NCBI GenBank assembly: GCA_000004695.1
Contig: CM000150.2
Span: 992,001 to 1,056,000, forward strand
From: Dictyostelium discoideum
Lineage: Eukaryota
Direction: 5' to 3'
DNA: 64,000 nt
Part shown: piece after piece, positions 30,829 to 31,978 of the stretch
Layout of the letters: each line of letters opens with the position of its first letter
Numbering within the stretch: position 1 is the first letter of the stretch
The notes under the pieces: model-generated
The model's database searches: none
What the model saw: only the letters and a program-made list of their open reading frames with translations
What the model was told of the DNA's origin: nothing
Made by a program: the position numbers and the translations under genes

Positions 30829-31978
<1,150 letters not shown>

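Follow-up and report, generated by a model that had tools for sequence, protein, structure and literature searches.

The window analysed here, a stretch of 64 kb (64,000 nt) of the Dictyostelium discoideum genome that is extremely A/T-rich with short blocks of higher G+C, carries on its plus strand the gene psmA5 for the proteasome subunit α5 (Table 1). Upstream of psmA5 lies an ORF whose product has an F-box-like motif (LPLELLEKIFKFL) near its N-terminus, followed in the list of its features by leucine-rich repeats and long homopolymer tracts (Asn/Ser). Judged by its size (about 702 amino acids) and position alone, this upstream neighbor appears to be syntenic in Dictyostelium citrinum, Dictyostelium firmibasis, and Dictyostelium dimigraforme. 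A further long ORF follows downstream of psmA5. The intergenic region upstream of psmA5 harbors a (TTATT)n array, and simple sequences of this kind are typical of Dictyostelium promoter regions.

The psmA5 ORF begins with an ATG and loses its coding sense past ...AAACTTGG at position 30995, where GTATGT follows. Exon coordinates were obtained by exact spliced mapping of a 244-amino acid protein onto the window, and joining positions 30895-30995, 31129-31137, 31244-31424, and 31535-31978 yields this protein, in which the sequence KLGSTAIGVQ is contiguous. The second of these segments, a micro-exon, completes the Gly34 codon with its first base, encodes Ser35 and Thr36, and ends with the two bases that open the Ala37 codon. 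It is preceded by ...TTTAAATAG (AAATAG/) and followed by GTAGGTTTT (/GTAGGT), and exon 3 opens after ...AATAAAG with TATTGGTGTACAA / TATTGGTGTACAATG.... If the 9 nt are left out, the reading frame is likewise kept and a protein of 241 amino acids with the sequence KLGIGVQ results. The spliced junction of D. discoideum with the micro-exon reads ...CTTGG/TTCTACAGC/TATTGG (string GCTATTAAACTTGGTTCTACAGCTATTGGTGTACAATG) and the skipped junction between exons 1 and 3 reads ...GCTATTAAACTTGG/TATTGGTGTACAATG (string GCTATTAAACTTGGTATTGGTGTACAATG); the equivalent junction string of Dictyostelium purpureum is GCTATTAAGCTTGGCTCAACCGCTATTGGTGTTCAATG. With its 9 nt, the psmA5 exon lies within the size range of constitutive coding micro-exons, a class of internal exons of at most 15 nt.

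Table 1. Features in and around psmA5 (positions of the window).
Feature	Coordinates	Strand	Details
Upstream ORF	28423..30453	+	intron-free; 676 aa
(TTATT)n array	30523..30650		about 25 copies; intergenic
psmA5 exon 1	30895..30995	+	ATG to ...AAA CTT GG; phase 2 end inside Gly34 codon
Intron 1	30996..31128	+	133 nt; 13% G+C
Intron 1 donor	30996..31001	+	GTATGT
Intron 1 branch-like motif	31053..31059	+	TACTAAC
Intron 1 acceptor	31127..31128	+	AG
psmA5 micro-exon	31129..31137	+	TTCTACAGC; 9 nt
Intron 2	31138..31243	+	106 nt; 13% G+C
Intron 2 donor	31138..31143	+	GTAGGT
Intron 2 T run	31143..31177	+	followed by CT-rich tract (to 31193)
Intron 2 branch-like motif	31209..31215	+	TATTAAT
Intron 2 motif to acceptor	31216..31243	+	A-rich (AAATAATAATAATAAATAAATAATAAAG)
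Intron 2 acceptor	31242..31243	+	AG
psmA5 exon 3	31244..31424	+	T ATT GGT GTA CAA ... ACT CAG
Intron 3	31425..31534	+	110 nt; Q97/N98, phase 0
psmA5 exon 4	31535..31978	+	stop codon TAA at 31976-31978 included
Downstream ORF	33313..36129	+	intron-free; 938 aa

The initial annotation of this DNA had placed the micro-exon exactly to the base, both in sequence and in coordinates, and was also right that the exon keeps the reading frame and that its inclusion gives KLGSTAIGVQ. For the skipped product it had given KLG-GIGVQ, which contains one G in surplus, a slip that changes nothing. The GTAGGT donor and the AG acceptor are present as described, and only the wording of a T-rich acceptor context needs to be corrected, this context being A/T-rich and not strictly T-rich.

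That the gene encodes proteasome subunit α5, as had been proposed, is borne out by matches of its product to the Pfam families PF10584 (Proteasome_A_N; 51.1 bits) and PF00227 (Proteasome) and by comparison with solved structures, among which the best matches are α5 chains from human, bovine, yeast (PUP2), and others with E values from 1e-103 to 1e-82 (about 1e-99 for the human and bovine chains and about 1e-90 for yeast PUP2). All but one of the 28 solved-structure matches are α5/PUP2 chains or chains described as ‘alpha type’ without further specification. The Dictyostelium product is a full-length orthologue of human PSMA5 and yeast PUP2, with which it has the Proteasome_A_N and Proteasome domains in common, and the sole difference to them resides in gene structure. 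The contribution of the micro-exon is visible in the domain match itself, as PF00227 is matched with 179.4 bits over profile positions 2-189 when the exon is included, and with 169.6 bits over positions 8-189 when it is left out, which amounts to a drop of about 10 bits.

Among the best 120 database homologues, 117 possess the residues [ST]-T-x between KLG and [IV]G, and in 106 of them these residues are STA. The three homologues lacking them are all group-4 Dictyostelium gene models, namely those of D. discoideum AX4 (UniProt Q55G04), D. purpureum, and D. dimigraforme, and in each case the underlying DNA has the exon. The claim that the micro-exon restores conserved residues is thus well founded; S35-T36-A37 are regained, and in an alignment of 113 sequences T36 never varies and conservation reaches at least 90% at S35 and A37. 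In an AlphaFold model that employs this alignment (mean pLDDT 79.9), helix H0 comprises residues 17-32 and strand S1 residues 37-41, and S35-T36-A37 are therefore predicted to form the H0-S1 junction, that is the link into the first β-strand of the α-subunit fold. An earlier model from a 22-sequence alignment, with a mean pLDDT of 52, was discarded as unusable.

A comparison with orthologous genes of other dictyostelids, as suggested in the initial annotation, was carried out for the genomic loci of seven dictyostelid orthologues, and the 9-nt exon is present in all five group-4 Dictyostelium genomes examined, D. discoideum included, together with both of its splice sites. The acceptor-exon-donor block reads AATTAG/TTCTACAGC/GTAGGT in D. 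citrinum and AAATAG/TTCTACAGC/GTAGGT in both D. firmibasis and D. dimigraforme; the gene models of the first two species contain the exon, and that of D. dimigraforme skips it. In D. purpureum, the model of which also skips the exon, the block is TATAG/CTCAACCGC/GTATGT. Three of the nine exon bases differ in this species, all of them at third codon positions (GGC TCA ACC GC), and G-S-T-A is kept. The protein divergence between D. discoideum and D. purpureum is comparable to that between fish and mammals (PMC3188802). In DNA alignments the block is identical at 20-21 of 21 positions in the three closer species and at 16 of 21 in D. purpureum, whereas the intron bodies align at 36-79% only and have undergone large insertions, deletions, and repeat expansions. 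Because a conserved block of this kind sits within poorly conserved introns and the exon has changed at synonymous positions only, the pattern points to a functional exon under coding constraint and not to a chance 9-mer.

Repeat expansions have occurred in the immediate vicinity of the exon. In intron 1 of D. firmibasis an (ATT)n expansion of about 170 nt is located between the branch-like motif and the acceptor (about positions 1665-1825 of the fetched locus), and in intron 2 of D. dimigraforme a (CT)n expansion of more than 100 nt follows right after the donor of the micro-exon (about positions 1770-1860 of the fetched locus). The signals of the micro-exon persist despite both of these expansions. 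An RNA gene as the cause of the conserved island was rejected, as searches for tRNA genes and Rfam families gave no match anywhere in the window.

The interval that separates exon 1 from exon 3 contains four segments of 1-60 nt bounded by AG and GT, and only one of them, the 9-mer, is in frame. Another in-frame route to the S-T-A residues, which the initial annotation had named as an outcome that would speak against the exon, was looked for in this interval and none was found, leaving the 9-mer as the sole in-frame candidate. Other in-frame solutions for the missing residues were rejected, since shifted exon boundaries would require sites other than GT and AG. The pattern AG-N-Ser-Thr-GC-GT occurs once in the entire 64 kb, counting both strands. 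At the composition of the window it is expected about 1e-5 times per 248 nt, and at the composition of the introns even less often, and none of 200,000 shuffles of the 248-nt interval produced it. A chance origin of the 9-mer is excluded.

Public databases contain both versions of the protein. An exact-sequence look-up shows that the 241-amino acid skipped form is the AX4 reference protein (EAL73722.1 / XP_647379.1 / UniProt Q55G04), and that the 244-amino acid form is identical to GenBank entries KAM9943950.1, KAM9962498.1, KAM9968628.1, and KAM9986484.1, each a ‘hypothetical protein ACTFIW_007778’ from one of four newer D. discoideum assemblies. These newer models may be homology-driven and hence perhaps do not constitute independent evidence. 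Gene models with S-T-A also exist for D. cf. discoideum, D. citrinum, and D. firmibasis, and deposited psmA5 models skipping the exon comprise 242 amino acids in D. purpureum (GL871156.1) and 241 amino acids in D. dimigraforme (JBTAPM010000001.1); in the fetched loci of the latter two species the psmA5 gene begins at position 1501. The expectation that gene finders miss such micro-exons is therefore met by the AX4, D. purpureum, and D. dimigraforme models alike, and the skipping error recurs across annotation pipelines.

We consider it very probable (about 0.93) that positions 31129-31137 are a true coding exon of psmA5, 9 nt long and constitutively included, between two short and independent GT-AG introns. 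If instead the reference annotation were right, positions 30996-31243 would be a single 248-nt intron, the 9-mer would be a fortuitous pseudo-exon, and α5 of D. discoideum would truly be devoid of S-T-A. Such a structure corresponds to the curated AX4 / UniProt Q55G04 entry, it joins exon 1 directly to exon 3 in frame and at canonical sites, and the models of D. purpureum and D. dimigraforme choose likewise, but it is hardly credible in view of a chance expectation of about 1e-5 and of a 9-mer that is retained with its splice sites and with synonymous changes only in five species with otherwise poorly conserved introns. A single intron would moreover have no need for the separate conserved branch-like motif and the AG-free tail that precede the 9-mer. 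It would also deprive the protein of residues that vary little or not at all in 113 homologues, among them those of dictyostelids without an intron at this site, and would lower the domain score by 10 bits. The 241-amino acid AX4 model is almost certainly an annotation error, and the correct product would have 244 amino acids.

A further reading would take the 9-nt exon as an alternatively spliced cassette, so that the 244- and 241-amino acid forms would both be made, perhaps in a regulated manner. Skipping preserves the frame and a skipped mRNA would for this reason escape nonsense-mediated decay and be stable; in addition, animal micro-exons whose length is divisible by three are frequently regulated cassettes (PMC4317164). 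This reading is nevertheless improbable, since exon skipping is low in amoebozoans (PMC6142364), since the deletion would strike a core subunit that is essential and single-copy, removing its invariant T36 at the H0-S1 junction, and since both introns possess strong and complete signals of their own. A search of metagenome and metatranscriptome contigs with one pattern for both the included and the skipped junctions of the five group-4 species gave 0 matches, and the public read assembly Logan contained no source for either the 244- or the 241-amino acid protein. Conservation provides very strong evidence that the micro-exon would be included in the mRNA, and a minor in-frame skipped isoform may accompany it.

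The two introns flanking the micro-exon are of a length typical for the Dictyostelium genome, in which introns measure 146 nt on average (PMC3188802). In the five group-4 species, all ten flanking introns possess a GT donor (GTATGT, GTAAGA, or GTAGGT) and a TAYTAAY motif, and in all ten the first AG to follow this motif is that of the acceptor, even across 183 nt of (ATT)n. U12-type introns were rejected, as the donors GTATGTTC and GTAGGTTT are of the major type and differ from the consensus RTATCCTT with its branch TCCTTAAC. The segment from TATTAAT to the acceptor of intron 2 is A-rich and without a polypyrimidine tract, a 3′ end that does not resemble the classical metazoan layout of 3′ splice sites. 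The T run of about 35 nt at the start of intron 2 may act as a U-rich enhancer.

From these signals, recognition would be expected to take place across each intron and not across the exon, with the spliceosome seeing two ordinary short introns, each of which would offer a donor and a TAYTAAY branch-like motif of its own and would be free of AG from there to the acceptor. Because the exon differs between species at all of its synonymous sites, all of the information for recognition would probably be intronic. The initial annotation had called for a mechanism independent of exon definition; independence of exon definition agrees with the signals found, but a special mechanism seems dispensable, as the introns are short and carry complete signals, so that ordinary intron definition applied twice would suffice. 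An exon of 9 nt would be too short to accommodate simultaneously the factors of the upstream acceptor and those of the downstream donor, and therefore the two introns would most likely be removed consecutively, with the downstream intron often going first, as in plant micro-exons. For this mode of recognition and order of removal we draw on the analogy with plants and on general knowledge of splicing.

In plants, the introns flanking micro-exons are removed consecutively, the downstream one often first, and a 9-nt exon of potato invertase is among the examples (PMC8831610, PMC4674806). The psmA5 exon belongs to the same size class as the constitutive ultra-short plant micro-exons of at most 15 nt, which include the 9-nt exon of potato invertase and a 1-nt exon of APC11 (PMC8831610, PMC4674806). 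Like these, it appears to be constitutive, coding, frame-preserving, and located inside a conserved protein domain, it has short flanking introns with strong intronic signals, it is routinely missed by gene finders and detectable from a gap in a conserved alignment, and it would share with them intron definition with consecutive intron removal. In contrast to the plant cases, the host is an amoebozoan, the flanking introns of psmA5 are 87% A/T and have yeast-like TAYTAAY motifs, and the experiments on which intron leaves first and on how far splicing relies on the branch point and the U-rich tract were made in plants, the order for psmA5 being proposed by analogy. The neural and tissue-regulated cassettes of animals (3-27 nt; regulated by SRRM4, RBFOX, PTBP1; PMC4317164) resemble the psmA5 exon in their very small size, in a length divisible by three, and in altering a protein by few residues without shifting the frame; they are, however, alternative, lie between long introns in a setting of exon definition, and need dedicated intronic enhancers. 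For the psmA5 exon, with introns of about 100-130 nt and residues needed in every known α5, nothing suggests regulation.

The exon as such is already known, being contained in the newer GenBank annotations and absent from the AX4 reference, so that our result represents a correction and not new biology. In the literature searched on Dictyostelium micro-exons and on psmA5 no mention of this exon was found, and the lone match to ‘microexon’ there is a command-line option of TopHat. The correction concerns the reference for an essential subunit of the 20S proteasome (XP_647379.1 / Q55G04), which is short of three conserved residues through a skipped 9-nt exon, and modelling of the Dictyostelium proteasome, the design of constructs, and searches of mass spectra that employ these entries inherit the error. 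With regard to method, a three-residue gap in a near-invariant block combined with a scan for short in-frame AG..GT segments within the intron allows missed micro-exons to be recovered reliably. With regard to biology, psmA5 presents an ordinary case of a known phenomenon, and the sole further question is how the two introns arose.

For this question, intron positions were determined by exact mapping of annotated proteins onto their loci. Heterostelium album and Acytostelium subglobosum from group 2 and Tieghemostelium lacteum from group 3 are intron-free at this site, their KLGSTAIG being encoded contiguously, and by this comparison the micro-exon appears to be specific to group-4 Dictyostelium. 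Balamuthia (Amoebozoa), the streptophyte alga Klebsormidium, and the fungus Rhizophagus possess a phase 0 intron between K32 and L33, from which intron 1 of group 4 (codon 33, phase 2) is 5 nt and intron 2 (codon 36, phase 2) 14 nt further downstream; at the position of intron 2 itself none of these three organisms has an intron. In the ancestor of group 4, two phase 2 introns may have been inserted 9 nt apart, or the K32/L33 intron may have shifted by 5 nt and been joined by one insertion, a scenario that we advance tentatively and at slightly less than even odds. The available taxa are compatible with sliding as well as with a loss of the old intron and two later gains, and the introns are low in complexity. 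If the scenario is true, psmA5 would offer a dated and clean case in which intron gain gave rise to a micro-exon, in a lineage where intron loss otherwise prevails. Old introns have persisted in psmA5, as T. lacteum, Klebsormidium, and Rhizophagus have the Q97/N98 intron in common with D. discoideum.
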